A stretch of DNA of 64,000 nucleotides from Longimicrobiales bacterium (GCA_965249725.1 CBDFMQ010000002.1:416001-480000), one strand, 5' to 3'. Positions 8,840 through 44,322 are shown, counted from the stretch's first letter. The notes: generated by a model from the letters alone, not told the origin. Program-made: numbers and translations.

Positions 8840-8869
8840 CGTCGGGGTCGACGACCCCTCTCGTGCCGC

Positions 8870-9214
8870 CTACAGATCGAGGACGAGCTTCAAGCCTGCG
8901 TTGACATGGGCCATCAGCTCAGGAGTGATTCGCCCCGCTCGCTCCGAGAGATAGGCCTCGTCCAAGGCGACGATCTGCGTGACGTTGGCCACCGAGTCCT
9001 TGGTCAGGCCGCTTACTTTGGCCGGAAGAAGGACGTTGCCCGGAGCGTCCAGGAGTCGGGTGTTCGAGGTCAGGACGATGCCCAGAACGGTCCGTAGTCG
9101 GCTCCGGTTGAAGGAGTCTGCCTGCACTACCAGGAGGGGGCGACGAAAGCCCGGCTCCGAGCCACGGGGTGCATCGAGATCTGCCCACCACACCTCGCGG
9201 CGCAGTACTACCAC
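8870..9214 (-). CDS. PemK/MazF-family toxin
   Basis: WWADL..GSEPGFRRP.LVVQ..FNRS and GLTKDSVAN motifs; overlaps the upstream small gene. Confidence 0.9.
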   Translation of the reverse strand: MVVLRREVWWADLDAPRGSEPGFRRPLLVVQADSFNRSRLRTVLGIVLTSNTRLLDAPGNVLLPAKVSGLTKDSVANVTQIVALDEAYLSERAGRITPELMAHVNAGLKLVLDL

Positions 9215-9444
9215 TCGTCGGAACTCACACTTCTGGCCTGGGCGGTACGGAGCGTCGGGTCGATGCCGCTGGGTGCGTCCGCGAAGACATCGTTCAATCT
9301 GGAGGTAACGTCCTCGTCACGGTGCTTTGCCAGGTACTCGGCGACCGCCGTAGCGTAGAGCTTGCTTCTGGATAAGCCTAAGCGTTCTGCGAGGGCGTCG
9401 GCAGATGCGAAAAGGTCATCGGGGAGAGAGACGGCAGTTTTCAT
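9208..9444 (-). CDS. Ribbon-helix-helix antitoxin paired with the MazF-type toxin
   Basis: MKTAVSLPDDLF..ADALAERLGLSRSKLY RHH pattern, directly upstream of the toxin. Confidence 0.85.
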   Translation of the reverse strand: MKTAVSLPDDLFASADALAERLGLSRSKLYATAVAEYLAKHRDEDVTSRLNDVFADAPSGIDPTLRTAQARSVSSDEW

Positions 9445-9470
9445 ACTGGAAGTATACTACGGTATGACCA
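9445..9470 (-). promoter_or_regulatory. Probable leaderless promoter of the TA operon
   Basis: Minus-strand TATACT (9456-9451), 6 nt, then ATG; no SD sequence. Confidence 0.55.
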
Positions 9471-9619
9471 GTCACGACAACTCCCACCGAAGAGGCCAGG
9501 GGAGACCCCGAATTCCTTTGAATGCTAGCATATGCTCGCCCGCCCCACCCGAGTTCATGAGGCTCGGATAGGGCGGGCGTAGCCGGTCGCGACGGACAGG
9601 CTGTAGGGAGGACTCCCTG

Positions 9620-10072
9620 CTAGAGGGTCTGCTCGCGGATATCGAAGCTCGATGTCGAGGCATCACGCAGAGCCCGGAACACGACCACGGGCTGGCTGTC
9701 GCTCGAGAAGTGGATGTCGTCGGTCTGGAACGCCAGCCTCGCCTCACCGGCTGAGGCTGAGAGGAGCTCAGCTCCGGACCCGTCCGCCTCGAGATCGAGG
9801 TAATCGAAGCTCGAACGGTCCCAGGTCAGCACGACCTGGTATTCGCCCTCTCCCGCCAGCCGCTGACCCGAAATGGCCAGTTCCACCCGAACCATCTCAC
9901 CCGCTTCGGCCTGGGCGCTGGACACATAGAACGTGATTCCCTGGTCCGCCGACTGCACGGCGTCGGAGATACTCTCCGGCGCTATCACCGAGCTGTCGCA
10001 GGCCATCAATCCGGCCACCAGAGCCAATGCCATCGCACCCTGTCCGAGCCTTCTACCGTTCACGTTTTTCAT
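9620..10072 (-). CDS. Putative lipoprotein with a cohesin/Ig-like beta-sandwich domain
   Basis: Signal peptide with lipobox LMAC; alternating beta-strand pattern VRVELAI/YQVVLTWD. Confidence 0.65.
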   Translation of the reverse strand: MKNVNGRRLGQGAMALALVAGLMACDSSVIAPESISDAVQSADQGITFYVSSAQAEAGEMVRVELAISGQRLAGEGEYQVVLTWDRSSFDYLDLEADGSGAELLSASAGEARLAFQTDDIHFSSDSQPVVVFRALRDASTSSFDIREQTL

Positions 10073-10104
10073 GATGATCTCCTGGCAGGTGGAGCGGCGT
10101 CGTT

Positions 10105-10149
10105 GCCGTTCTCATACCACACACAGGAAACCGTGCACGGGCGTGCTCA
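10105..10149 (-). promoter_or_regulatory. 45-bp motif, copy A; candidate ECF-sigma promoter of the lipoprotein gene
   Basis: 37/45 ungapped identity with 22752-22796. Confidence 0.6.
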
Positions 10150-10228
10150 TCGGAGTCGGCCTTTCGCCGTCGGAAGTGAGTCGCTATCCCTCAGACGCCC
10201 TCCCCAGGGGCAGACCGAGGGGGCTCTG

Positions 10229-10801
10229 TTGAGCGATATGGACACCATCTCGCTGCTGCGCATGGCAGCGACCGGCGACTTACATGCTCGGGATCAGGCG
10301 TGGGCCCGTGTATATGACGAAGTACTGGTCGTCGCTCGCGCCCAAAGACGCCGCTGGAGTGGCGACTGGACCATGGAGACCCGGGTCCTCGCCAACGAGG
10401 TCTTCATCAAGGTCTTTGGTGACAATCCCCCGGAACTGAAGGACCGAAAGCACTTCTTCACGTTGTTGGCGAAGGCCGTCCGGCAGATTCTGGTCAACTA
10501 CTCGGAGGCACGCCGCGCCGCGAAGAGGGGAGGAGGACAGGCTCAAGTCACACTGTCGGAGGCGGGCGGCCTGTCGCTCGAGCCCGAGGTGTCGGATCGG
10601 ATCCTGGACCTGCACTCCGCGCTCAAGCGCTTCGAGTCGTTGGACGCGCGAGCTGCACGCATCGTGGAGCTTCGTTTCTTCGCTGGGCTGAACTACGACG
10701 AGATCGCGTCCGCATTGGGAGTATCACGCGCCACCGCGGTGCGTGACTGGGAAGCGGCCAAGCTCTGGCTCCATCGTGAGATGGGCGGGGCACCGGCATG
10801 A
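10229..10801 (+). CDS. ECF sigma factor of the Ser/Thr-kinase-associated type (TIGR02999-like)
   Basis: HFFTLLAKAVRQILVNY..AKRGGG; VELRFFAGL..EIA..LGVSRATAVRDW; TTG start at 10229 (SD GAGGGG) or ATG at 10238. Confidence 0.9.
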   Translation: MSDMDTISLLRMAATGDLHARDQAWARVYDEVLVVARAQRRRWSGDWTMETRVLANEVFIKVFGDNPPELKDRKHFFTLLAKAVRQILVNYSEARRAAKRGGGQAQVTLSEAGGLSLEPEVSDRILDLHSALKRFESLDARAARIVELRFFAGLNYDEIASALGVSRATAVRDWEAAKLWLHREMGGAPA

Positions 10802-11907
10802 CCTCCGACGAGGCGGCGTTGTGGCAGCGCGCCAGGGCCGTGCTTGAACTGACCCTCTCCCAGCCCGAAGATACGCGCCGTCGCTTCGTTCTCGAGACAT
10901 GCGACCAGGACCCGGAGCTGGTAACGGAGGTGCTATCGCTCCTCGAGTCCGAAGGTGGCTCGGAGACCTTCTTCGACCAGCTCGGTAGCGCCATCGACGA
11001 CGGCCTGGCCGGGGCAGAGGAGCCGGATCCTTGGTTGGGTCGATCTGTGGGCCCTTATCGGATTGTGGAGCTTCTCGGGCGAGGCGGGATGGGATCGGTA
11101 TACAAGGCCGAGCGGGAGGGAAGCTCGGGGGAGCCTCCTGTCGCGATCAAGATTCTCAGAAGCGAGTCGGAGCATCCAACCTCTCGCGAACGGTTCCTGC
11201 GTGAACGCGACAGACTTGCCGGACTCGACCATCCTTATATAGCCCGCATTCTGGATACCGGTGAGGGCGAATCAGGCGTCCCGTTCTACTGCATGGACCT
11301 CGTTGAAGGTGAGCGGATCGACCACTACGCGGATCGGCATCGCTTGAGCGTAGCACCGCGCATAAGGCTGATCCTCAAGGTGTGCGACGCCGTAGTCCAC
11401 GCCCACGCACGGCAAGTCATCCACCGAGATCTCAAGCCCTCGAACATTCTTGTTCGATCAACGGGCGAGCCGAGCCTGGTGGACTTCGGCATCGCCAAGC
11501 TCTTGGATCCCGTGACACAAGGTGACCCCACACTATCGTTGCAGGCGGCGGCCTACACTCCGGGTTATGCGAGTCCGGAGCACGTGGTAGGTGACTCCGT
11601 TTCTGCAGCCAGCGATGTCTATTCGCTGGGTGTGCTCCTCTACGTGGTCCTGGCGGGGGCGGAGCCTTCACTCAAGCGCAGTCTGGACCGGCAGTCACCC
11701 GCGGAGGTGCTACAGCTGAAGGGGGAAAAGGCGACGGCCCTGGCGGCGGCTCGTGCCGCGACCGTGGACGATTTGCTCGACACGTTCGAAGGAAGGCTCG
11801 GCGATGTGCTCTTGAAGGCTTGTCAGATGCGCCCCGAGCGGCGGTATCAGACGGTCGGTGAGTTGGTGCAGGCGCTGGAGAGCTACCTGGATTCCGTGAA
11901 AGACTAG
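10798..11907 (+). CDS. Hanks-type Ser/Thr kinase, cognate to the ECF; no TM helix or sensor domain
   Basis: GRGGMG, VAIK, HRDLKPSN, DFG, YASPE, DVYSLG; ATGA overlap with the sigma gene; ORF ends right after the kinase domain. Confidence 0.92.
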   Translation: MTSDEAALWQRARAVLELTLSQPEDTRRRFVLETCDQDPELVTEVLSLLESEGGSETFFDQLGSAIDDGLAGAEEPDPWLGRSVGPYRIVELLGRGGMGSVYKAEREGSSGEPPVAIKILRSESEHPTSRERFLRERDRLAGLDHPYIARILDTGEGESGVPFYCMDLVEGERIDHYADRHRLSVAPRIRLILKVCDAVVHAHARQVIHRDLKPSNILVRSTGEPSLVDFGIAKLLDPVTQGDPTLSLQAAAYTPGYASPEHVVGDSVSAASDVYSLGVLLYVVLAGAEPSLKRSLDRQSPAEVLQLKGEKATALAAARAATVDDLLDTFEGRLGDVLLKACQMRPERRYQTVGELVQALESYLDSVKD

Positions 11908-11942
11908 TGGCAGCCCGCACACATTAGGCGCATGTTAAGGCG

Positions 11943-14366
11943 ATGTCTGATCCCGTTACCCGCCTGAACGCAGCCCTAGAAGGCCGCTACGCCATCGAGC
12001 GTGAGCTGGGCGAAGGCGGGATGGCTACGGTGTACCTGGCCAAGGACCTAAAGCACAACCGCAACGTCGCGCTCAAGGTGCTTAAGCCAGAGCTCGCGGC
12101 GGTAGTCGGCGCCAAGCGGTTTCTCGCCGAGATCGAGACCACCGCGAACCTCCAGCACCCCCACATCCTGCCGCTCTTCGATTCCGGCGAGGCAGATTCG
12201 TTCCTCTTCTATGCCATGCCGTACGTGGAGGGAGAGACCCTGCGGGAAAAGCTGGACCGCGAGCATCAGCTCTCCGTGGACGAGGCGGTCAGGCTCACGA
12301 CGAATATCGCTGAAGCCCTGGAGACCGCTCACGAACAAGGCGTCGTCCACAGGGACATCAAACCCGCCAACATCCTACTAAGCCGGGGTAGCCCCCTCGT
12401 CGCGGACTTCGGGATCGCCCTGGCGGTCAGTTCGTCGGGTGGCGATCGCCTGACCGAGACCGGCTTGTCCATGGGCACGCCCTACTACATGAGCCCCGAG
12501 CAGGCCGCTGGGGAGAGCCATGTCGACGCGCGCAGCGATATCTACTCGCTGGCGGCGATGCTCTACGAGATGCTGGCGGGTGAGCCGCCCTATACGGGCC
12601 GGACCGCACAGGTCATCCTGACCAAACGAATCACGCAACCGGTCCCGTCGGTGCGAGACATCAGGGATAAGGTGCCCGCGAGCATCGACGGGACGCTCAA
12701 GCAGGCCCTTTCCCCGGTACCTGCCGATCGGTTCTCTACGACCGGCGAGTTCATCTCCTCGCTGACGACGTTGGTGGTGAGCGAAGCGAAGAAACCACTT
12801 CCCTGGAAGCCGTGGGCGGCAGCGGGTGTCGCGGCGACCGTGGTGAGCGCCATCGGGATCGGACTCGCGCTCACCCGCTCCGGCGGTGTGGGTCCCGCAG
12901 GGGTAGATGGCCGCGTGGGGGAGGACGGCCAGTCAACCGCGGAAGGCACGGCAACGGTCGCCAGCCAGGCCGGTGCCCCCGTAGAGATCATCGATCCGAA
13001 CTCTATAGTCGTGCTGCCGTTTCTGGACCTGTCGGGCCAGGATCAAGAGTTCATGTCGGACGGCATTGCCGCAGAGCTACTCACCCTGCTCGCCCGGATC
13101 CCGGGCTTGAAAGTTCCCTCACGGACCAGCGCGTTTTCTTTCAAGGATAAGGATCTGACCATTCCGGAGATCGCCGCGCAGCTCGGCGTCGCCCACGTGC
13201 TGGAGGGCACGGTGCGGATGGCGGGCGACGTCGTTCACATTACTGCGACGTTGATCGATCCACGGTCCGACGAGCAGCTCTTCTCCGAGGACTACGACCG
13301 CCCGCTCGACGACATCTTCACGGTTCAGGACGAGATCGCGGCCAGGGTCGCGTCCGAGCTCAGGATTGAGTTGCTCGGTGAGCTACCGCGGCAGCGCGAG
13401 ACCGACCCTGAGGCGTACAGGCTGTTCCTGCAGGCGAGCCATATCGCCGACTTGGGGTTGGTGGAGAGCCTCGAGACAGCCATCCCAATGTTCGAACGTG
13501 TGCTCGAGATCGACCCTAATTACGCTCCGGCCTACGTTGAGCTCTCCGCTGCGTACCGTGATCGGGGCTACAATGGCCCACGGTCCTATGAGGAGGGTCT
13601 CCAGATGGCTGTCAGCGCGGCGGAGCGTGCCGTCTCTTTGGACCCCGACTTTGCCTACGCTCATGCGATCCTCGGATCGACCATGGCTATGGGTGGCGAC
13701 TGGGAAGGCTTGAGACACGTCGAGCGGGCACTCGAGCTGGCGCCCACTGACACGGAGGTCCTCATGTTAGTGGGAATCAACCTCTGGGCTCTGGATCGTA
13801 TGGAAGAAGCCATCTTGGCGTTTGAATACGTTACAGAGCTCGACCCCCTGTATGGGAATAATTTTTACAACCTCGGCAACGCCTACATGTTGGCGGGTCG
13901 TCATGAGGACGCGGCGGCGACGCTCCGCACGCTATTGGAGCTGAATCCGTCGGAGCCCGATGCGCCTGGCGACCTTGGCCTGGCGTTGCTAGGGATGGGT
14001 GAGCTTGACGAGGCCCTGGCAATCGCTGAGTCGGCGACGGACGCTATACGCCGCCTTCATCTCTCGGCGCTGGCCTATCATGCACTTGGGCGACAATCCG
14101 AGTTTGAGACTGCGTTTCAAGAACTGCGAGGGGGATGGGGCGAATCGTTCCCGACCGTCATCGCAAGCGTGTATGCCTACACGGGAGATGTAGACGCTGC
14201 CTTCGAAATCATCGACCAGGTGGAATCTCTGGACCCCACTACCATCTTCGATCCGCTTTTCGCCAATCTTCATGACGATCCGCGCTGGACGGCGTTCCGT
14301 GAAAGAACAGGCCAGTCCGAGGAAGAGCTCGCGGCGATTCAGTTCGAGGTCAGTCTGCCGGGGTAA
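11943..14366 (+). CDS. Receptor Ser/Thr kinase: kinase, TM helix, TolB-N-like domain, TPR repeats
   Basis: Intact kinase motifs; hydrophobic segment WAAAGVAATVVSAIGIGLAL; SIVVLPF..DGIA..SRTSAFSFK; TPR-like repeats. Confidence 0.9.
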   Translation: MSDPVTRLNAALEGRYAIERELGEGGMATVYLAKDLKHNRNVALKVLKPELAAVVGAKRFLAEIETTANLQHPHILPLFDSGEADSFLFYAMPYVEGETLREKLDREHQLSVDEAVRLTTNIAEALETAHEQGVVHRDIKPANILLSRGSPLVADFGIALAVSSSGGDRLTETGLSMGTPYYMSPEQAAGESHVDARSDIYSLAAMLYEMLAGEPPYTGRTAQVILTKRITQPVPSVRDIRDKVPASIDGTLKQALSPVPADRFSTTGEFISSLTTLVVSEAKKPLPWKPWAAAGVAATVVSAIGIGLALTRSGGVGPAGVDGRVGEDGQSTAEGTATVASQAGAPVEIIDPNSIVVLPFLDLSGQDQEFMSDGIAAELLTLLARIPGLKVPSRTSAFSFKDKDLTIPEIAAQLGVAHVLEGTVRMAGDVVHITATLIDPRSDEQLFSEDYDRPLDDIFTVQDEIAARVASELRIELLGELPRQRETDPEAYRLFLQASHIADLGLVESLETAIPMFERVLEIDPNYAPAYVELSAAYRDRGYNGPRSYEEGLQMAVSAAERAVSLDPDFAYAHAILGSTMAMGGDWEGLRHVERALELAPTDTEVLMLVGINLWALDRMEEAILAFEYVTELDPLYGNNFYNLGNAYMLAGRHEDAAATLRTLLELNPSEPDAPGDLGLALLGMGELDEALAIAESATDAIRRLHLSALAYHALGRQSEFETAFQELRGGWGESFPTVIASVYAYTGDVDAAFEIIDQVESLDPTTIFDPLFANLHDDPRWTAFRERTGQSEEELAAIQFEVSLPG

Positions 14367-17149
14367 TGTCAGATCCCGTCGCCCGCCTAAACGCAGCCCT
14401 CCAAGGCCGCTACGCCATCGAGCGCGAGCTGGGTGAGGGCGGCATGGCCACCGTCTATCTGGCCGACGACATCAAGCACGAGCGCAAGGTCGCCCTCAAG
14501 GTCCTGAAGCCCGAACTAGCAGCCGTAGTCGGTGCCGAACGCTTCCTCGCCGAGATCAAGACCACCGCAAACCTGCAGCACCCCAATATCCTGCCGCTAT
14601 TCGATTCCGGCGAGGCGGACTCGTACGTCTTCTACGTGATGCCCTACGTGGAAGGGGAGAGCCTTCGGGACAAGCTCGACCGCGAGCACCAGCTCCCCGT
14701 GGACGAGGCGGTCCGGATCGCGAGCGAGGTCGCCGAGGCCCTCCAGGCCGCGCACGAGCAGGGCGTCGTCCACCGCGACATCAAGCCTGCCAACATCCTA
14801 CTCAGCCGGGGTCGCCCGCTCCTAGCAGACTTCGGGATCGCGCTTGCCGTGAGCTCGGCAGGGGGCACCCGCCTCACCGAGACGGGGCTCAGCGTCGGCA
14901 CACCACACTACATGAGCCCCGAGCAGGCGGTGGGCGACCGGACCACGGGACCGTCCACGGACATCTATGCCCTGGGCTGCGTGCTCTACGAGACGCTGGT
15001 CGGAGAGGCTCCGTACACCGGCACCACGGCGCAGGCGATTTTGGGCCGGATCATCACCGGTGAGCCGGTATCGGCCACGAAGCACCGGCCGTCAGTGCCG
15101 GCCAACGTGGACGCGGCAGTCAGGAAGGCGCTGGAGAAGCTGCCGGCAGATCGCTTCGGCAGTGCCCAGGGCTTGGTGCAGGCTTTGGCCGACCCCGGCT
15201 TCCGGCACACGGTGGTGGGTGGGGACGAGCCTGCCGAGGTGGAGCCACGCCCACTCTCGCGTAGGGCCCTCCCTTGGGGGCTCACGGCGGTACTCGCGGT
15301 CACGCTGGTGGTCCTCACCTCGAGACCACCGGTGCAACCAGCGCCCGAAGTCGTGCGTTTCACCGTACCGATTGCGCAGGGTGACACGACCTACCTGGGT
15401 GGCCCATTCACCTGGAACTGGGGGGTGCCCGTTAGCACGTCCGTCGCGATGTCGCCGGCCGGGGACCTACTGGTCTATGCGGCGCGGGGCGGACCAGATG
15501 CCCCGCTGACGGACGGACGGCTTTATTCGCGCCGATTCGATCAGGACGTCGCCGAGCCGATCGCGGGAACGGAGGGGGCCCAAAGTCCGTTCTTTTCGCC
15601 GGACGGTGCCTGGATCGGCTTTTTCGTCGAGGCGTCGCTGAAACGAGTCTCCATGGTTGACGGTACGCTCGAGACGATCGTAGCGGAGGCTCCACTCGGG
15701 GAAGGCAACCCGTCTGGTGACCCTGGCAGCGGACCTTCCTTAGGCGCGACCTGGGGAGACGACGGAACGATCGTGTTCAGCGGCGCGGGTCTTCTGTACC
15801 GGGTCGCGGCCACTGGGGGAGAACCCGAGTTGTTCGCCGAGGGGCTCCTGCCCGGCGCCGGGGATTCTGTATTCTATCGCCGCCCCGAGATCCTACCGGG
15901 AAGCCAGGCAATCCTGCTGCAAGCCATCCCATCCCAATCCCGCGATCCCGAAGACGCCGAGATCGTTGCGCTGGACCTCGCCGGGGGCACGCGGAGGACC
16001 GTGCTGACCGACGCCATGGACCCGCGCTACGTGCAGACGGGACATCTGCTATTCGTGCGCCAGGGGACACTCATGGCGGTCCGGTTCGATCCGAACCGTC
16101 TCGAGGTGCAGGGCCAGCCCGTGATCATGATCGAGGATGTCATGCACGCGGTGCTCATGCCCAATGGCCAGTCTGAGACCCACGCCGCTCAGGTAGCCGT
16201 ATCGGGGTCCGGTCACCTGGCCTATGCCCGCGGCGGTATTTTTCCAGAGGAGCGCAATCGTGTGGTGCGCATCACGAGTGCGGGCGACACGGTTCCCCTC
16301 GAGACGGACGGTCGTGACTATCTGAGCCTTATGGTGTCCCCCGACGGAAGCCGGCTCGCCTTCATGGCCTTCGAAGGATCAGGCTTACGGCTCGGCGTCC
16401 ACGACCTAGGTCGTGGTGTGACCCAACTCCTGAACGGTCTCTCCGACGAGCACCCCATTTGGAGCCCTGATGGCCAATCGCTGGCAGTTTATTCAAACGA
16501 TGACGGGCACATGTATCGCCGCGCGGCGGACGGCAGCGGCGAGCCGGAGCGGTTGGCGCCCTCGGACAGAAGTCAGTACCCGTCTTCGTGGTCCTCCCAA
16601 GGGGTCATCGCGTTTCTGAGCGAAGAATCGCCGGAGTCTGGTGAATCGGATATCTGGCTGCTGCCGCCGGGCGAGGAGCCTGCGCCCTTTTTCACATCAG
16701 GGTCGGTGGAGTGGGGACCGACTTTTTCCCCGGACGGCCGGTGGCTCGCGTATTCGTCTGACGAAAGCGGGCGGCGGGAGGTTTACGTACGACCGTACCC
16801 GGGGCCGGAACCTGCAACGCAGATCTCCGGCGATGGCGGATTGAACGCGGCGTGGTCGCCCGATGGTCGGCAGATCTACTACGTACAAGATATGGAGGGG
16901 CCCCGACCCTGGGTCCTGATGTCTGTAGATGTGACCCCTGGCGATGAGCTTCAGGCGGGTCGCCCGGTGCCGCTCATCGATTCCTGGATCTTCGGAATGC
17001 AAGGAGTGCGAGGCTATGACGTCTTCCCTGACGGCTCGTTTGCCACGTACACGGCGGACATTCGCCCTTATCTAGAGCAGCACGGGGTTACCGAGCTGCA
17101 CGTCGTGCTCAACTGGTTCGAGGAGTTGAAGGAGCGGGTGGGGAATTGA
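14366..17149 (+). CDS. Receptor Ser/Thr kinase: kinase, TM helix, PD40/TolB-like beta-propeller
   Basis: GEGGMATV, HRDIKPAN, DFG, GTPHYMSPE; TM LPWGLTAVLAVTLVVL; repeated (F/W)SPDG; TAATG overlap with the previous gene. Confidence 0.92.
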   Translation: MSDPVARLNAALQGRYAIERELGEGGMATVYLADDIKHERKVALKVLKPELAAVVGAERFLAEIKTTANLQHPNILPLFDSGEADSYVFYVMPYVEGESLRDKLDREHQLPVDEAVRIASEVAEALQAAHEQGVVHRDIKPANILLSRGRPLLADFGIALAVSSAGGTRLTETGLSVGTPHYMSPEQAVGDRTTGPSTDIYALGCVLYETLVGEAPYTGTTAQAILGRIITGEPVSATKHRPSVPANVDAAVRKALEKLPADRFGSAQGLVQALADPGFRHTVVGGDEPAEVEPRPLSRRALPWGLTAVLAVTLVVLTSRPPVQPAPEVVRFTVPIAQGDTTYLGGPFTWNWGVPVSTSVAMSPAGDLLVYAARGGPDAPLTDGRLYSRRFDQDVAEPIAGTEGAQSPFFSPDGAWIGFFVEASLKRVSMVDGTLETIVAEAPLGEGNPSGDPGSGPSLGATWGDDGTIVFSGAGLLYRVAATGGEPELFAEGLLPGAGDSVFYRRPEILPGSQAILLQAIPSQSRDPEDAEIVALDLAGGTRRTVLTDAMDPRYVQTGHLLFVRQGTLMAVRFDPNRLEVQGQPVIMIEDVMHAVLMPNGQSETHAAQVAVSGSGHLAYARGGIFPEERNRVVRITSAGDTVPLETDGRDYLSLMVSPDGSRLAFMAFEGSGLRLGVHDLGRGVTQLLNGLSDEHPIWSPDGQSLAVYSNDDGHMYRRAADGSGEPERLAPSDRSQYPSSWSSQGVIAFLSEESPESGESDIWLLPPGEEPAPFFTSGSVEWGPTFSPDGRWLAYSSDESGRREVYVRPYPGPEPATQISGDGGLNAAWSPDGRQIYYVQDMEGPRPWVLMSVDVTPGDELQAGRPVPLIDSWIFGMQGVRGYDVFPDGSFATYTADIRPYLEQHGVTELHVVLNWFEELKERVGN

Positions 17150-19923
17150 TGACAGATCCCGTCAGCCGCCTAAACGCAGCCCTAGAAGGCCGCTACGCCA
17201 TCGAGCGCGAGCTGGGCGAGGGCGGCATGGCCACCGTCTACCTGGCCGATGACCTCAAGCACGAACGTAAGGTCGCCCTCAAGGTCCTGAAGCCCGAGCT
17301 GGCCGCCGTGGTTGGAGCCAGGCGCTTCCTCGGCGAGATCAAGACCACCGCCAACCTGCAGCATCCGAACATCCTGCCGCTCTTCGATTCCGGGGAAGCC
17401 GACTCGTACGTCTTCTACGTGATGCCCTACGTGGAGGGAGAGAGCCTGCGGGACAAGCTCGACCGTGACCACCAGCTCCCCGTGGACGAAGCGGTCCGGA
17501 TCGCGAGCGAAGTCGCCGAGGCCCTCCAGGCTGCCCACGAGCAGGGCGTCGTCCACCGTGACATCAAGCCCGCCAACATCCTGCTCAGCCGGGGCCGCCC
17601 GCTCGTCGCCGACTTCGGGATCGCGCTGGCCGTGAGCTCGGCGGGGGGCACCCGCATTACCGAGACGGGACTGAGCGTCGGCACGCCCCACTACATGAGC
17701 CCAGAGCAGGCCGTGGGCGACCCGACCACGGGACCCTCCACGGATATCTACGCCCTGGGCTGCGTGCTCTACGAGACGCTGGTCGGAGAGGCTCCGTACA
17801 CGGGTACCACCGCACAAGCGATTCTGGGCCGGATCATCACGGGTGAGCCGGTATCGGCTACCAAGCACCGGCCGTCGGTGCCGGCCAACGTGGACGCGGC
17901 AGTCAGGAAGGCTCTGGAAAAACTGCCGGCAGATCGCTTCGGCAGCGCCCAAGGCTTGGCGCAGGCTCTGGCCGACCCCGGCTTCCGGCACACGGTGGTG
18001 GGTGGGGACGAGCCTGCCGAGGTGGAGCCACGCCCACTCTGGCGTAGGGCCCTCCCTTGGGGGCTCACGGCGGGACTCGCGGTCACGCTGGTGGTCCTCA
18101 CATCGAGACCACCGGTGCAACCAGCGCCCGAAGTCGTGCGTTTCACCGTACCGATTGCGCAGGGTGACACGACTTACCTGGGTGGCCCATTCGCCTCGGC
18201 CTGGGGGGTGCCCGTTAGCACATCGGTAGCAATTTCGCCGGCCGGGGACCTACTGGTCTATGCGGCGCGGGGTGGACCCGACGCCCCGGAGACGGACGGA
18301 CGGCTTTATTCGCGCCGATTCGATCAGGACGTCGCCGAAGTGATCGCAGGAACGGAAGGGGCCCAAAGTCCGTTCTTTTCGCCGGACGGTGCCTGGATCG
18401 GCTTTTTCGTCGGGACCTCGTTGAAACGAGTCTCCATGGTTGACGGTACGCTCGAGACGATCGTAGCGGAGGCTCCACTCGGGGAGCTCGAAACTGGTAG
18501 TGGACCTCCCTTGGGGGCGACCTGGGGAGACGACGGAACGATCGTGTTCAGCGGCGCGGGGACTCTGTACAGGGTCGCGGCCACTGGTGGCGAACCCGAA
18601 TTGCTCGCCGAGGAGCTCCTGCCCGGCGCCGGGGATTCTGTATTCTATCGCCGCCCCGAGATCCTACCGGGAAGCCAGGCAATCCTGCTGCAAGCCAACT
18701 CATCCCAATCCCTCGATCCCGAAGACGCCGAGATCGTTGCGCTGGACCTCGCCGGGGGCGCACGGAAAACGGTGCTGACCAACGCCATGGACCCGCGCTA
18801 CGTGCTGACGGGACATCTACTATTCGTGCGCCAGGGCACACTCATGGCTGTCCGGTTCGACCCGGACCGTCTCGAGGTGCAGGGCCAACCGGTGATCATG
18901 GTCGAGGATGTCATGCACGCGGTGTTCATGCTTAACACCCGTAGCGAGACTCAAGCCGCTCAGGTCGCCGTGTCGTCGTCCGGTCACCTGGTCTATGCCC
19001 GCGGCGGTACCTTTCCGGCGGCGCGTACTAGTGTGGTGCGCATCACGAGTGCGGGCGACACCGTTCCCCTCGAGATGGACGTTCGTCACTATATCAACCT
19101 TAAGGTGTCCCCCGACGGAAGCCGGCTGGCCTTCATGGCCAGGGAAGGATCAGCCTTCCCGCTCGGTGTCCACGACCTAAGCCGAGGCGTGACCCAACTC
19201 CTGAACGGTGTCTCCGACATAAATCCGATTTGGAGCCCTGATGGCCAATCGCTGGCAGTTGTTTCAATCGATGACTACAACATGTATCGCCGCGTAGCGG
19301 ACGGCAGCGGCGAGCCGGAGCGGTTGGCGCCCTCGGACAGAAGTCAGTACCCGTCTTCGTGGTCCTCCCAAGGGGTCATCGCATATGTGAGCGAAGAATC
19401 GCCGGAGTCTAGAGAACACGATATCTGGCTGTTGCCGCCGGGCGGTGAAGCTGCGCCTTTCTTCACATCAGGGTCTGAGGTTATGGGCCCGACGTTTTCC
19501 CCGGACGGCCGGTGGCTCGCGTATGAGTCTGACGAAAGCGGGCGGTTCGAGGTTTACGTACGACCGTACCCGGGTCCGGAACCTGCAACGCAGATCTCCG
19601 GCGGCGGCGGAACGAACGCGGCATGGTCACCCGATGGTCGGCAGATTTACTACGTACAATGGCCTGAGGACTCGCCCCCACCGGGGGTCCTGATGTCTGT
19701 AGATGTGACCCCCGGGGATGAGTTTCAGGCGGGTCGCCCGGTGCCGTTCATCGATTCCTGGGTCGTCGCAACGAGTCCAGTGCGAGGCTATGACGTCTTC
19801 CCCGATGGCTCGTTTGCCACGCTCGTGGTGGACGATCGTCCCTATCTCGAGCAGAACGGGGTTACCGAGGTGCATGTCGTCCTCAACTGGTTCGAGGAGT
19901 TGAAGGAGCGGGTGGGGAACTAG
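17149..19923 (+). CDS. Receptor Ser/Thr kinase with beta-propeller; tandem paralog of 14366-17149
   Basis: Colinear with the previous ORF over its full length; TGATG overlap places the ATG at 17149. Confidence 0.92.
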   Translation: MTDPVSRLNAALEGRYAIERELGEGGMATVYLADDLKHERKVALKVLKPELAAVVGARRFLGEIKTTANLQHPNILPLFDSGEADSYVFYVMPYVEGESLRDKLDRDHQLPVDEAVRIASEVAEALQAAHEQGVVHRDIKPANILLSRGRPLVADFGIALAVSSAGGTRITETGLSVGTPHYMSPEQAVGDPTTGPSTDIYALGCVLYETLVGEAPYTGTTAQAILGRIITGEPVSATKHRPSVPANVDAAVRKALEKLPADRFGSAQGLAQALADPGFRHTVVGGDEPAEVEPRPLWRRALPWGLTAGLAVTLVVLTSRPPVQPAPEVVRFTVPIAQGDTTYLGGPFASAWGVPVSTSVAISPAGDLLVYAARGGPDAPETDGRLYSRRFDQDVAEVIAGTEGAQSPFFSPDGAWIGFFVGTSLKRVSMVDGTLETIVAEAPLGELETGSGPPLGATWGDDGTIVFSGAGTLYRVAATGGEPELLAEELLPGAGDSVFYRRPEILPGSQAILLQANSSQSLDPEDAEIVALDLAGGARKTVLTNAMDPRYVLTGHLLFVRQGTLMAVRFDPDRLEVQGQPVIMVEDVMHAVFMLNTRSETQAAQVAVSSSGHLVYARGGTFPAARTSVVRITSAGDTVPLEMDVRHYINLKVSPDGSRLAFMAREGSAFPLGVHDLSRGVTQLLNGVSDINPIWSPDGQSLAVVSIDDYNMYRRVADGSGEPERLAPSDRSQYPSSWSSQGVIAYVSEESPESREHDIWLLPPGGEAAPFFTSGSEVMGPTFSPDGRWLAYESDESGRFEVYVRPYPGPEPATQISGGGGTNAAWSPDGRQIYYVQWPEDSPPPGVLMSVDVTPGDEFQAGRPVPFIDSWVVATSPVRGYDVFPDGSFATLVVDDRPYLEQNGVTEVHVVLNWFEELKERVGN

Positions 19924-19931
19924 GCAGACCC

Positions 19932-22632
19932 CTACCGAATCGTCACCCCGATCTCCGCCTGTCGCTTGTGGAACGCGAGCGAGGACACCCCGAACGTCGG
20001 CTGATCCAGAACGGTCCCCATCCCAGCTGGATCGAAGTTCGTCCGATTCAGGAGGTTGTAGACGCTGAACTGTACGCCGGCTGTTCGGCCGTCTGCGACG
20101 TCGAAATTCCAGCCCAGTCTCATGTCGACACGTAGGAAGTTCGGACCTTCGTGGCCGTTTCTGGGCTCTCCTGGAGGACGGTCTGCATTAATGCCGTCCC
20201 TGTTCAAGTCGTCGACGACGATGGCCGTGTAAGGCCGACCGGAGGAGTACACGAGTTTCCCCGACACCGAGAGGCCGAACGGATAGTCGAACCCCCCGGT
20301 AGCGACGATGCGGTGCCTCTCGTCCCACGCCGCTCGTCCTTTGAGACCCGAGAAGTCCGTCACCTCGGGGTCGAGCGGGCCTTGAATGAAGTCGTTCCAG
20401 GCATCGCTCGTGTTCTGGCGATCCGCGAGGGTGTAAGCGAGGGTCATCCAGCCGCGATCGAGAGTCTTACTCGCCTGCATCATCAGGAGCTTGGCGTCCG
20501 CCTCGCCTTCGGTGAGCATCTGAAACAGATCCCCGTGGTCGGGATACTTCCGGACCTCATAGTCGGCGTCCCACGTGTTCAGGGATCGCTCCATCGGGAT
20601 GTTCCGGCCTTGAATCACCAGGCCGTCGACACGAAGCACGACTCCGCCCGTCACCTCCTGCTCAAATCCGAGCGAAAACTGCCTCGTCATGGGGGTCTTG
20701 AGTTCAGCGGCATTGGGCCAGTGGAGCTCGCCGAAGAAGAGGGGATTGTCCCGAAGCAGCTCGTCCACGTTGAGCGAGGCGGGTTCGGGGATCCCACCAA
20801 ACAAGAAGGCGCCGGAATGGGACTCCAGGCCGTCGCCTAGCGAATGCTGCGGCAGGGCGTCGTAAAAGATGCCGAATCCGCCACGGATCACCGTGCTACC
20901 ATCCTCCGCCGCATCCCAGGCAAAACCGAGTCTCGGCCCGATGTTGTTCTTGTCGACGGGGCGTGGTGTAGTGCGAATGAACGGAAGTTGTCCCGCCAGG
21001 GGCGACACGTACCCCTGGTTCGTTCCGTTGGTCTCGATCTCGTAGCGTAAGCCGATGTTCAGGGTCAGCGACGGCGTGGGATTCCATTCGTCCTGGGCGA
21101 ACACCGCTACTTGGGTATTCTGCGACACCGTGCCGATCAGTCCGGATCCCACAAGTGCGAACTCGGGGTCCACGGCTTCATCGGAGGGAAAGAAGAAGAG
21201 GCCGTCTTCAAGGATGTGGTATCGGGCGTGGTTGTCCTGCCAGCTTACCTGTGTCCCAAGCTTGATGCGGTGCGTCCCCGAGGCACCGGTCGCGACGAAC
21301 GACAGGTCCTCGATCAGTTCGATCCGAGTGTAGTTCGTCGGGCCCCACTCCGGAACCGGTCCGACGCAGATGGATGGATAACAAAGTGTTGGACCAGCAT
21401 CCGCGATCCGACCTTCATTGAAGTTTCGGTGGATCACGTGGAACCGCGCCTGGTTCACCATCCCGCCACCCAGAGACCACCGATGCGTGAGCAGAGCACC
21501 GTGCAGATCCGATGAGAGCAAGAGGCCTGTCGATGGGCTGGCCGGGGGGTCGTCCGCACCGACTCCGACAACCTTCTCCGCGATCTCGCCGGTGTATCGC
21601 AGGCTCAATTCGTGGGTGTCGCTGATCCTGTGATCCAGGCGCGCGAACATCAGATTGTCGGTGAACGGCGTCTTGAAGGTCCCGTTGACCCCGGGTATTG
21701 GGCTGGCCGTGTTGATGGTGGCGAAGTTGTTCTCCACCTTCCGTTCCATGGCCATGAAGAAGTGCGTTCGGTCCTGAGCAATCGGACCGCCGACGGCGAA
21801 GCCCCAGTGCGAACGGCTGAAGTCCGGTTTCGTTTCTTCGAAATGGCCGAGGGCCGTCATCTGGCGGCCTCGGAAGAGCCCGAAAGCCTCGATCTCAAAC
21901 TCGTTCGTACCCCGACGGGTGACGGCGTTGACGACGCCGGATGCCGTCCGCCCCAGCTCCGCGGAATAGGACGTCTGGATGACCTCGAACTCCTGAATGG
22001 CGAGTAGAGGTACTCCGCCGGTCACGTCCCCGAACGCCGGCTCAGTAAAGTCGCCACCGTCCACGAGCACACCCATGGATTGAGCGTTCAACGCTCCGAC
22101 GGAGATTTCGGTGCCGAGGTTCGTGTACCCTACGCCCGGCCCGGTGGTCGCGCCGGGCGCGAGGGCCGCGAGGTCAATGAAGCTGCGGGACTCCTCGGGG
22201 AGGCGTTGGATCATCTCTTGATCCATCGCGAACGCAACGTCGGCGTCGGTGGAGGCGACCAGAGTGCGGGGAGCCAGGACCCGAATACCCTCCAACTCGA
22301 GGGCGCTGACAGCGACGGTGAAGTCCAGTGTCAGCGTCTTGCCGATCGGGAGCGCGACGTCCTCTTGGGCGGTCGATTCCAAGCCGATGCGGCTTGCGAG
22401 AATGTCGTAGCGCCCCGGGGGGAGCCCGGTCAGCCAATATCGTCCCGTCGGCGTCGTTGCCGCCTCATACCGGAAGCCGGTGGCCACGTTGGTCGCGGTG
22501 ATCTCCACAGCGGACAGCTTCGGAGTCTTGTACCACGCCCGTGAGTTCTGCTGTGGCGGTTTGGCCGAGGGCTGGGATGCTGGTGGCTGCCAGCAGCAAA
22601 GAGACCGCTAGAATGGGTCGTAACTGACGCAT
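19932..22632 (-). pseudogene. TonB-dependent receptor (Oar-like) with a frameshift near the 5' end; pseudogene or sequence error
   Basis: Main ORF 22508-19932 has plug motif IQEFEV..YSAELGR..GVVNAVT and barrel motifs QDEW/LNIGLRYE/PRLGFAWD. The signal peptide MRQLRPILAVSLLLAATSIPALGQ starts at 22632 in a different frame. Confidence 0.8.
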
Positions 22633-22751
22633 GGCGGGATTCCTTTTTTAGGTGGTTTCCACTGCGGGGTGGAAACCGTTGTGTCTAGGGTGTGCGGCTC
22701 CGGTGGGGATAGCAAGAAAGCTACGTTCTCTGCGACGACTCAGATCCCATC

Positions 22752-22796
22752 GCCGTCCCCATATCACACACAGGAAACGGGGTAGGGGAGTGCTCA
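22752..22796 (-). promoter_or_regulatory. 45-bp motif, copy B; candidate ECF-sigma promoter of the TonB-dependent receptor gene
   Basis: 37/45 ungapped identity with 10105-10149; same orientation relative to its downstream gene. Confidence 0.6.
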
Positions 22797-22870
22797 CGGC
22801 CGTATAGCGTGCCCTCTTTCGGCCCAACTCGCCCGTGGCACTCCGCGCACACTAGGGACATTTTGAAGCG

Positions 22871-23467
22871 ATGCCCGATCCCCGATTGCTAGATACCGAG
22901 CTTCGCGAAGAGCCGCTGACCAGTCTGGCTGCACATGCCGAGATCTCCATCGCCTTTCAGGGGGACCGCGTCCTGATCCCCAGCACCGAGCCAGGAGGTC
23001 TCGAGGCACTGACTCTCGTGGAGGTCCTCCAAGAGCCTCCCTATATGAATGACTATGATGCCATCCCCGGGAACGACCCACTGGACTGGCCTCGCCGCTT
23101 CGATACATCCGGTTGGGCTCTGATCTCGGCGTGGCTTGGCGGCGAGCGGGTTGGTGGCGTCGTCATCGCTTACTCGACCGAGGGTGTCGATATGCTCGAA
23201 GGCCGCTTGGACCTCGCCGTGCTCTGGGACTTCCGCGTGGCGCCTGAAGTGCGCGGCACCGGGGTAGGGGCGGCACTCTTCGAGGCCAGCGAGGAATGGG
23301 CGCGAAGCAGGGGCTGCATCGAGCTGAAGGTGGAGACGCAGAACATCAATGTGCCCGCCTGCACGTTCTACGAGAGGCAGGGCTGCGAGCTGCGCGCGAT
23401 CGATCGATTCGCCTACCCAGACGTACCCGACGAGATTCAACTACTCTGGTACAAACGGCTTACTTAA
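22871..23467 (+). CDS. GNAT-family N-acetyltransferase (streptothricin acetyltransferase-like)
   Basis: VAPEVRGTGVG acetyl-CoA motif; VETQNINVPACTFY; LLWYK. Confidence 0.85.
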   Translation: MPDPRLLDTELREEPLTSLAAHAEISIAFQGDRVLIPSTEPGGLEALTLVEVLQEPPYMNDYDAIPGNDPLDWPRRFDTSGWALISAWLGGERVGGVVIAYSTEGVDMLEGRLDLAVLWDFRVAPEVRGTGVGAALFEASEEWARSRGCIELKVETQNINVPACTFYERQGCELRAIDRFAYPDVPDEIQLLWYKRLT

Positions 23468-43302: not shown

Positions 43303-43620
43303 TCACCTCGGACCGAACGAACGTCCTTCCAGGCGGTCGATTCGTTCGCCGTTCGCTGTGACCCCCTCGGCCACGGCACGCAGGTCGTAGCTCAGCTGTT
43401 CTTGGCCCACCTCGACGCGGGTCAGTGCCCCCTCGACACGGGTCAGTCCCCCCTCGACGCGGGTCAGTCGCCCCTCGACGCGAGTCAGTCCCCCCTCGAC
43501 GCCGTCCAACCGACCACCGTGCTCCTCGTACACCCGGCCAATCATCTCGTAGTTTCGCGCGATCCCCTTCGCGTTCCCCTGAATCAGGGATTTCAGCTCT
43601 TGGAATTGCTGATTGGTCAT
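43303..43620 (-). CDS. Small coiled-coil protein with heptad repeats
   Basis: (LTRVEGx)x4 in frame; ATG at 43620. Confidence 0.65.
   Translation of the reverse strand: MTNQQFQELKSLIQGNAKGIARNYEMIGRVYEEHGGRLDGVEGGLTRVEGRLTRVEGGLTRVEGALTRVEVGQEQLSYDLRAVAEGVTANGERIDRLEGRSFGPR
43410..43501. repeat. 21-bp tandem repeat, about 4.4 copies
   Basis: CCTCGACGCGGGTCAGTCCCC-like units. Confidence 0.9.
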
Positions 43621-43700: not shown

Positions 43701-43808
43701 TCACTCCGGCACCAACCGCTTGGTGGCCATGCCGCCCTCGCCGAGCTCACGCTCGATGGTGTAGCGGCCCCCAAGGGCGGCGTTCAGGCGGGTGACGGGA
43801 CCGGACAT
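43701..43808 (-). pseudogene. 35-codon receptor-kinase remnant (family N-terminus fused to a C-terminal-like tail)
   Basis: MSGPVTRLNAALGGRYTIERELGEGGMAT|KRLVPE*. Confidence 0.75.
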
Positions 43809-44322
43809 CAGTTGCCATGCGCTGGCGAAGCTCCTCGGCGAGTGCGATCCCGAAGTCGGCGACGAGTGGCTCACCCTGTGCACTCAGGAGGATGTTGGCC
43901 GGCTTGATGTCGCGGTGGACCACGCCGTTCTGATGTGCGTAGTCGAGTGCGCCCGCCACCTTCTGCGTGATCGCCAGGGCGTCGTCCACGCCGAGTTGTT
44001 TCTTGCGGTCGATGCGATCCCTGAGGGACTCCCCTTGCACGTGGGGCATGACGTAGAACAGGAACGAGTCAGCCTCGCCGGAATCGAACAGCGGCAGGAT
44101 GTGCGGGTGCTGGAGGTTGGCGGTGGTCTCGATCTCAGCCAGGAAGCGTTCGGCACCCACGACCGCGGCCAACTCGGGCTTGAGGACCTTGAGCGCGACG
44201 TTGCGGTTGTGCTTCAGGTCCGTGGCGAGATAGACGGTGGCCATGCCGCCCTCGCCCAGCTCGCGCTCTATGGAATAACGGCCTTCGAGGGCTGCGTTCA
44301 GGCGGGTGACGGGATCAGGCAT
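43808..44322 (-). pseudogene. Internally deleted receptor Ser/Thr kinase
   Basis: Kinase subdomains I-VII up to DFGIALA join directly to EELRQRM; subdomains VIII-XI are absent. Confidence 0.85.

Follow-up and report, generated by a model that had tools for sequence, protein, structure and literature searches.

The 64,000-nucleotide (nt) stretch of a Longimicrobiales bacterium genome analysed here (GCA_965249725.1, CBDFMQ010000002.1:416001-480000; hereafter the window) carries two adjoining paralogous genes, A and B, each encoding a Hanks-type Ser/Thr kinase joined through a transmembrane (TM) helix to a double beta-propeller. It is likely that these are duplicated receptor kinases driven apart by selection on one face of the propeller, with different specificities and the same output. 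The pair arose by a recent tandem duplication, and both the kinase and the bottom face of the propeller are under purifying selection. The sequences further indicate that a limited number of top-face residues, most of them in propeller 2, are positively selected, that gene conversion between A and B has been patchy, and that the copies became fixed in the species, individual strains retaining or losing them. By likeness to the PknD cup, the TolB canyon and the hotspots of WD40 proteins, the top face is the predicted ligand-binding surface. An earlier note on this DNA had proposed selection on one ligand-binding face; selection confined to one face was borne out, while the ligand-binding role stays a prediction by analogy.

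The two genes lie head-to-tail, with a stop/start overlap of 1 nt. Their parts, in window positions, are as follows.
14366..17149, + strand: gene A, Hanks Ser/Thr kinase, TM helix and double beta-propeller, 927 amino acids (aa)
17149..19923, + strand: gene B, tandem paralogue of A, 924 aa from the ATG at 17149
14366..15205, + strand: kinase domain of A (B equivalent 17149-17988)
15266..15322, + strand: predicted single TM helix of A, residues 301-319 (B, 18049-18105)
15353..16243, + strand: propeller 1 of A, residues 330-626, closed by the C-terminal strand 910-915 (B, 18136-19014)
16244..17065, + strand: propeller 2 of A, residues 627-900, TolB-like (B, 19015-19839)

The kinases scored 168.6 and 164.5 bits against PF00069, and the glycine loop, VAxK, HRD, DFG and APE-type catalytic motifs were intact in A and B. 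By a simple window method, the TM segment was the sole hydropathy peak (Kyte-Doolittle 1.86 in A and a marginal 1.62 in B), and PD40 repeats were found in both proteins. An AlphaFold model of residues 325-927, built on 112 sequences, reached a mean confidence (pLDDT) of 92.5 and contained 12 four-stranded blades, i.e., two six-bladed propellers. In a wide structure search, propeller 2 aligned with TolB 2ojh (Z 28.6, root-mean-square deviation (rmsd) 2.6, 257 residues aligned), and the other propeller with the PknD sensor 1rwi (Z 20.2, rmsd 3.0, 239 aligned), which is an NHL-type propeller. Among solved chains, none reproduced the arrangement of the two propellers (Foldseek TM-score about 0.3). 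On these models, A and B are single-pass receptor Ser/Thr kinases with a cytoplasmic kinase, one TM helix and a predicted extracytoplasmic double propeller, and the description of the locus as tandem receptor kinases was confirmed. They do not belong to the PknB/Stk1 PASTA kinases, as NF033483 matched the kinase part only (292 bits, threshold 450) and no PASTA match was found, nor to the TolB family (TIGR02800, 74 bits against a cut-off of 343), the likeness to TolB being one of fold only.

A and B differ in 100 amino acids over 923 aligned codons. All nine pairs of divergent patches listed in the earlier note are present as written.
15407..15424, + strand: FTWNWG (B FASAWG, 18190-18207), d-a loop of propeller 1
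15698..15733, + strand: GEGNPSGDPGSG (B GELETGSG, 18481-18504), d-a loop, 4-codon indel, low pLDDT
16154..16171, + strand: LMPNGQ (B FMLNTR, 18925-18942), d-a loop
16244..16261, + strand: PEERNR (B PAARTS, 19015-19032), linker between the propellers
16310..16333, + strand: GRDYLSLM (B VRHYINLK, 19081-19104), start of strand a, blade 7
16445..16456, + strand: DEHP (B DINP, 19216-19227), start of strand a, blade 8
16703..16717, + strand: SVEWG (B SEVMG, 19474-19488), d-a loop and start of strand a, blade 10
16889..16912, + strand: DMEGPRPW (B WPEDSPPPG, 19660-19686), b-c loop of blade 11, 1-codon indel
16988..17005, + strand: IFGMQG (B VVATSP, 19762-19779), d-a loop before blade 12

The amino-acid changes in the propeller do cluster as claimed: neighbours within 3 codons number 45, against an expectation of 32.6 (p = 0.0005). 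Four patches stop 1-10 residues short of the next blade's SPDG-type turn, in agreement with the reported position before blade motifs, and the IFGMQG patch ends just ahead of an FPDG blade. The third codon position is indeed often kept, being unchanged in 60 of the 87 changed codons; 15 codons change at positions 1 and 2 only, and 38 of the 87 carry multi-base changes. The pair and its patches thus stood, but the 'nearly invariant scaffold' did not, since synonymous divergence (dS) in the propeller is 0.205; the long stretches of identical DNA were likewise overstated (89.6% identity overall, longest identical tract 86 nt). The patches contain 35 of the 87 propeller changes, the other 52 lying elsewhere, mostly on the same face. 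The kinase domains are 96% identical (11 aa changes in 280, dN/dS 0.06), and their dS of 0.364 exceeds that of the propeller. Silent differences are patchy along the gene (p = 0.004 for the whole gene, 0.04 for the propeller), and one segment is a likely gene-conversion tract between A and B.
15176..15400, + strand: codons 271-345 (linker, TM helix and first strand), 2 of 53 four-fold sites differing from B

In a beta-propeller, the d-a and b-c loops with the adjoining strand halves form the top face, and the a-b and c-d loops the bottom. Face labels were taken by this convention from the strand order of the AlphaFold model, the SPDG turn being the a-b loop. So labelled, 65 of 298 top-face codons and 16 of 249 bottom-face codons were changed (p = 2.5e-7), i.e., the changes concentrate on one face rather than scattering over the structure. 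For loops alone the counts were 37/169 and 8/121. Nonsynonymous divergence (dN) was 0.156 on the top and 0.033 on the bottom face, dS was 0.207 and 0.188, and divergence at four-fold sites was alike (19/135 and 20/157). The residue class was switched in 56 of the 65 top-face changes. Aligned blade by blade, the changes fall repeatedly in the d-a loop and the first part of strand a, and again from the end of strand b through the b-c loop into strand c, and in propeller 2 they affect 40 of 128 top-face codons. The positions changed between A and B are also variable among 110 homologues.

By counting, dN/dS (omega) was 0.80 in the patches versus 0.35 in the scaffold, i.e., higher, as the earlier note expected, but not above 1. 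As patches picked by eye make such a comparison circular, codon models were fitted. Model M2a was preferred to M1a with a likelihood-ratio test statistic (LRT) of 53.7, placing 8.9% of sites at an omega of about 19, and no positive-selection signal was obtained in codon models for the kinase domain or for the bottom face alone. The signal persisted when doublet mutations were allowed (LRT 22, p = 2e-5), was similar with F61 frequencies, and remained at p = 5e-4 after removal of the two indel loops; for propeller 2 by itself it reached p = 6e-4. Twenty-four sites had a posterior above 0.9, of which 22 lie on the top face, 15 of these in propeller 2. In partitions defined a priori, without reference to the A/B differences, and with a shared divergence time t, top-face sites variable among homologues gave an omega of 1.77 (p = 0.003), and such sites in propeller 2 gave 2.0 (p = 6e-4). 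Omega above 1 for a subset of sites is therefore fairly well supported by the coding sequences, and the proposal of diversifying selection on one face was upheld, with about 9% of sites above 1 in a result robust to three rival models. Polarisation against 23 closer homologues assigned 23 changes to A and 22 to B and left 42 undecided, and this near-equality argues against decay of one copy. Within a selected loop, Ser603 is encoded by TCT in A (16172-16174) and by AGC in B (18943-18945), which implies either passage through another amino acid or a multi-base event.

Six between-species pairs of the family served as controls (70-94% identical; flank synteny seen in five, the L143 pair being a best match only). 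In all six, the propeller was under purifying selection, with an omega of 0.10-0.18, a top-face omega of 0.08-0.27 and an LRT of 0-1.3. Among further pairs, the metagenome pair L053/L064 reached p = 0.017, and L058/L061 gave no selection signal. Twelve pairs were analysed in total, and two were dropped, L039/L044 for numerical overflow and L040/L049 for a frame artefact at a contig end. A set of 151 propellers contained just one further pair from a single genome with more than 70% identity, at 71% in relative G011; relatives were sampled in the retrieved regions only. The controls without signal make the burst specific to the A/B duplication among the cases at hand, and a replicate has not yet been seen.

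The loops had also been called hypervariable in the manner of antibody complementarity-determining regions. As a live process this was not borne out, as no amino-acid variant was seen in the patches of other strains. None of 17 non-kinase single-base variants from four runs of four studies fell within the nine patches; few strains were covered, rare variants are lost from contigs, and strongly divergent alleles could escape the 92% threshold. Another 20 of the 37 variant rows were dropped because they lay in the kinase region, where other kinases map. Full-length alleles from other assemblies differed from A or B by 2-3 residues, none of them in a patch. Fourteen of the 17 variants match the paralogue's base, a pattern that assembly collapse can mimic. 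The sites that differ in other strains are the following.
18273..18290, + strand: five A-type bases in B of other strains (codons 375-381; runs X1 and X2)
19027..19033, + strand: site of interruption of B in runs X1-X3 and in proteins P0124/P0125/P0127; contigs overlap here by 7 nt and continue into other sequence
16601..17009, + strand: A broken in another strain type, with a 1-nt loss at 16601 and a stop at codon 882 (17009)

Protein P0124 carries the A-type L381, which backs the first of these, read here as a short A-to-B conversion tract. A B-type patch in A at 15630-15638 (run X3) was set aside as a possible assembly collapse, since no assembled protein supports it. The interruption of B is probably an insertion, and the same three runs show a further 1-nt loss in B at 19675. 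One contig of 805,531 nt carries a whole B (P0002) and a split A (P0123, P0122), and run X9 has the frameshift, the stop and a Q519L change matching the split A. On three contigs A is whole (P0001), B ends at codon 628 (P0124), and the pieces downstream of it are interrupted at 816 or 844 (P0125-P0127). Loss of A or B thus seems to have been reciprocal among other strains, proteins being assigned to strains from shared contig sizes, and this suggests that strains keep different receptor subsets; the window strain retains both genes.

Several observations weigh against selection as the cause of the divergence. The selection test rests on two sequences, so that the size of omega is poorly bounded (13-63 across models). 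Counting gave only 0.80 in the patches and 1.0-1.2 in the most variable decile of homologue positions, omega over the whole top face averages 0.75-0.78, and 1.4-1.8 is obtained for the propeller 2 top by itself (p = 0.10). Nine partitions were tried, and with their own t the p values of the two a-priori ones given above rise to 0.08 and 0.04. Propeller 1 alone fails to reject a model of older, neutral loops (p = 0.44), and the older paralogue pair in G011 reaches no more than p = 0.08. The face labels rest on strand order, not on coordinates. Two of the six between-species pairs also show top-face enrichment (p = 0.03 and 0.01) without omega above 1, so enrichment alone is partly ordinary. Finally, A and B are each broken in some strains, which points to a constraint that is now loose.

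A rival reading is relaxed constraint combined with conversion, in which the duplication would be older (kinase dS about 0.3-0.6), the scaffold homogenised and the loops left to drift neutrally. Such a history, which we regard as unlikely, is consistent with the patchy silent differences, the almost identical codons 271-345, the conversion tract in other strains and the loss of A and of B in some of them. It also fits the variability of the A/B-changed sites among homologues, the excess of silent changes next to amino-acid changes (33/183 versus 32/304, p = 0.027) and the difference at position 3 in 27 of 87 changed versus 62 of 506 unchanged codons. However, a neutral model in which the older loops have their own divergence time requires t to be 1.3-1.4, double the value estimated for the kinase, and the data reject it (LRT 13.9, p = 2e-4), the fast class fitting t at 0.195 versus 0.19 for the background. 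None of 107 datasets simulated with a neutral top face and conversion reached the observed LRT, the largest value being 8.6. The equal four-fold divergence of the two faces speaks against it too, and bottom-face sites that vary among homologues stand at an omega of 0.16-0.66. Relaxed constraint is already disfavoured.

Two other origins were weighed against a local duplication followed by selection. A and B might be niche-adapted alleles that diverged in different lineages and were joined by recombination in the island described below. The island is missing from relatives, the A/B subfamily occurs in 2 of 120 family genomes and in neither of two same-genus genomes (E<=1e-100), and dS differs between kinase and propeller, all of which would suit this origin. 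The exact head-to-tail arrangement with its stop/start overlap, together with the purifying selection and the lack of top-face selection in between-species pairs, makes it very improbable, and the conclusion on selection is independent of which origin holds. Still less probable is a live, antibody-like generator of patches within populations, working by reverse-transcriptase mutagenesis as in diversity-generating retroelements (DGRs) or by cassette conversion. The frequent multi-base codon changes, the single reverse transcriptase in the genome and the variants that match the paralogue's base, which would allow ongoing exchange between copies if not due to collapse, are what it could draw on. 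A DGR or cassette mechanism was rejected because adenine bias, a template or donor and a nearby reverse transcriptase were all lacking, and the assembled alleles differ outside the patches. The differing sites hold G45 C33 T29 A27 in the A copy and C36 A36 T35 G27 in the B copy. For 24 patch queries the genome contained no donor beyond chance matches of 14-19 nt, and no DNA match to the propeller besides the paralogue and the last 45 nt. The conservation of these C-terminal 45 nt was considered as a recombination arm and is explained by a conserved peptide with biased codons. The reverse transcriptase (413 aa, C3:198610) lies about 230 kb from A/B and is followed by an ABC-type and a phospholipase-D-like open reading frame (ORF), both labelled by eye (L127:4389-8746, corresponding to G000:C3 about 198400-202700), a context that does not look DGR-like.

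The source is probably a member of the Gemmatimonadota, judging by named homologues. The genome holds 21 kinase-double-propeller genes, with a median identity of 77% in the kinase and 32% in the propeller and a weak correlation between the two (Mantel rho 0.18, p = 0.07). In nine other pairs the kinases are at least 85% identical and the propellers 29-41%. The earlier note spoke of divergence 'producing a repertoire', which holds for a slow, genome-level set of 21 paralogues but not for live generation, as neither a generator nor patch variants were found. Relatives are similar, with at least 22 such genes each in the sampled regions of G011 and G080, and kinase-propeller proteins are abundant (5840 matches among 8000 scored candidates). 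No DNA-level orthologue of A/B was found in 40 relatives, where matches were short. We also considered that the kinase of A or B had been copied from another paralogue in the genome and rejected it, the other kinases being 70-77% identical in DNA; 60-nt windows of up to 93% identity to them correspond to the conserved N-lobe. This double propeller is also found in proteins that lack a kinase or that join it to SARP/BTAD-type regulators (P0007, P0014, P0029, P0034, P0066), including in Gammaproteobacteria records, and its occurrence in these forms suggests that the sensor is a mobile module. Elsewhere in the window (43722-44322, - strand), two truncated kinase starts lie 514 nt apart, a 191-aa ORF that is 79% identical to the A kinase and an 87-nt start, which look like decayed family members. 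Four to five tandem 21-nt repeats stand beside them (43406-43510).

A and B lie in a genomic island with the following features.
8840..23350, no strand assigned: island of about 14.5 kb between hslU and gcvT that holds A/B, from comparison with five relatives
10103..14366, + strand: upstream genes, an extracytoplasmic function (ECF) sigma factor followed by kinases; the ECF gene matches TIGR02999 and PF07638 above cut-off
10798-11907, + strand: sensor-less Ser/Thr kinase, overlapping the end of the ECF gene
11943-14366, + strand: kinase with a TM helix and tetratricopeptide repeats (TPR), upstream of A
19932-22508, - strand: TonB-dependent-type outer-membrane protein, convergent on gene B and within the island

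Hardly any sequence separates hslU from gcvT in G001, G011 and G075; in G080 the distance between the two genes is about 1 kb, and in G002 a 3.7-kb insert lies between them. On this comparison the gap appears to be an insertion hotspot. A close relative of the kinase-TPR gene stands alone in another genus (L124:8255-10612, G011), without an ECF gene or propeller kinases, and is 81% identical in DNA over the kinase. A 45-nt repeat, 82% identical between its two copies, precedes the ECF gene (10105-10149, + strand) and a GNAT gene (22752-22796, + strand), and its 14-nt exact core occurs at only those two places in the genome. From its GGAAAC and GTGCTCA elements, we would guess that it may be the ECF factor's own promoter. 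The TonB-dependent-type protein is a possible partner for trans-envelope signalling.

In the mechanism that we propose, selection would have given A and B different ligand specificities and left the signalling output, i.e., the 96% identical kinase, unchanged. A ligand at the top of propeller 2 would dimerise the receptor and activate the kinase, for which the co-located ECF sigma factor is a possible target. Diverged copies would then be kept or lost per strain by birth and death, and the repertoire of 21 could have been built by duplication, bursts of selection and exchange of kinase modules, with no dedicated diversity generator. The pace of change and the lack of signal in between-species pairs lead us to guess at a changing biotic ligand. 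A/B would offer a natural experiment, in which some two dozen selected residues outline the likely binding site on a near-constant kinase and scaffold, so that specificity is testable by residue swap. The pair would be a clean case of receptor specificity evolving, as opposed to an antibody-like variation machine.

In a literature search with most subscription journals outside its scope, nothing was found on the kinase-double-propeller family, its selection or its ligands. PknD of Mycobacterium tuberculosis is a receptor Ser/Thr kinase with a six-bladed propeller sensor, whose ligand is proposed to sit in the central cup (PMC3601408). A and B share its kinase-TM-propeller layout and one alignable propeller (Z 20.2). 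Unlike PknD, with its one propeller, they have two, with PD40/TolB-type blades, 10% identity to PknD, 21 paralogues and a selected duplicate pair. TolB, which binds peptides in a central canyon (PMC2821528), is the best structural match of propeller 2 (2ojh Z 28.6, 1c5k Z 26.4; 19% identity), but propeller 2 falls below the family cut-off, lacks the TolB N-terminal domain and is fused to a kinase. Top-face interaction hotspots are described for WD40 proteins (PMC4754046), and control of kinase activity by a propeller for RqkA (bioRxiv 10.1101/2020.04.06.028845). The kinase-WD40/TPR families of Planctomycetota and myxobacteria underwent lineage-specific expansion by tandem duplication and recombination (PMC11032199). 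They resemble the present family in joining a cytoplasmic kinase to a periplasmic repeat sensor and in this mode of expansion, and differ in phylum and blade type. The order of an ECF sigma factor and then kinases, one of them with a TPR sensor, recalls the ECF43 sigma factor/Hanks kinase pairs such as EcfK-PknS (PMC13147305, PMC7826278). Here, however, the QTTA consensus of sigma region 2.2 reads ETRV, and the adjacent kinase, rather than A or B, may act on the sigma factor.

Evolutionary parallels are offered by highly repetitive prokaryotic WD40 proteins, whose conserved scaffold bears diverse hotspot sites (PMC5587647), and by the fungal HNWD receptors het-d/het-e, shaped by positive selection and sequence exchange (PMC1805685). 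A and B share with both a conserved scaffold and variation at interaction-surface positions in each blade, and with the HNWD receptors positive selection. Unlike in those systems, the blades of A and B have diverged and no repeat shuffling was seen, the patches do not vary from strain to strain, and signalling runs through a membrane kinase. Neither near-identical internal repeats, searched for among the window's 20 largest repeats, nor allelic polymorphism at the selected sites, in the few strains and with contigs as above, were found in A/B. A possible though doubtful extension is that the kinase-double-propeller family of Gemmatimonadota and Acidobacteriota forms a pattern-recognition repertoire. 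Its kinase modules would be interchangeable and homogenised by conversion, and its top faces engaged in an arms race with biotic ligands, i.e., host, predator, competitor or phage proteins or peptides, with a burst of selection at each duplication and strains keeping different subsets. If true, this family would be the membrane-kinase counterpart of the fungal HNWD and plant receptor-kinase repertoires.

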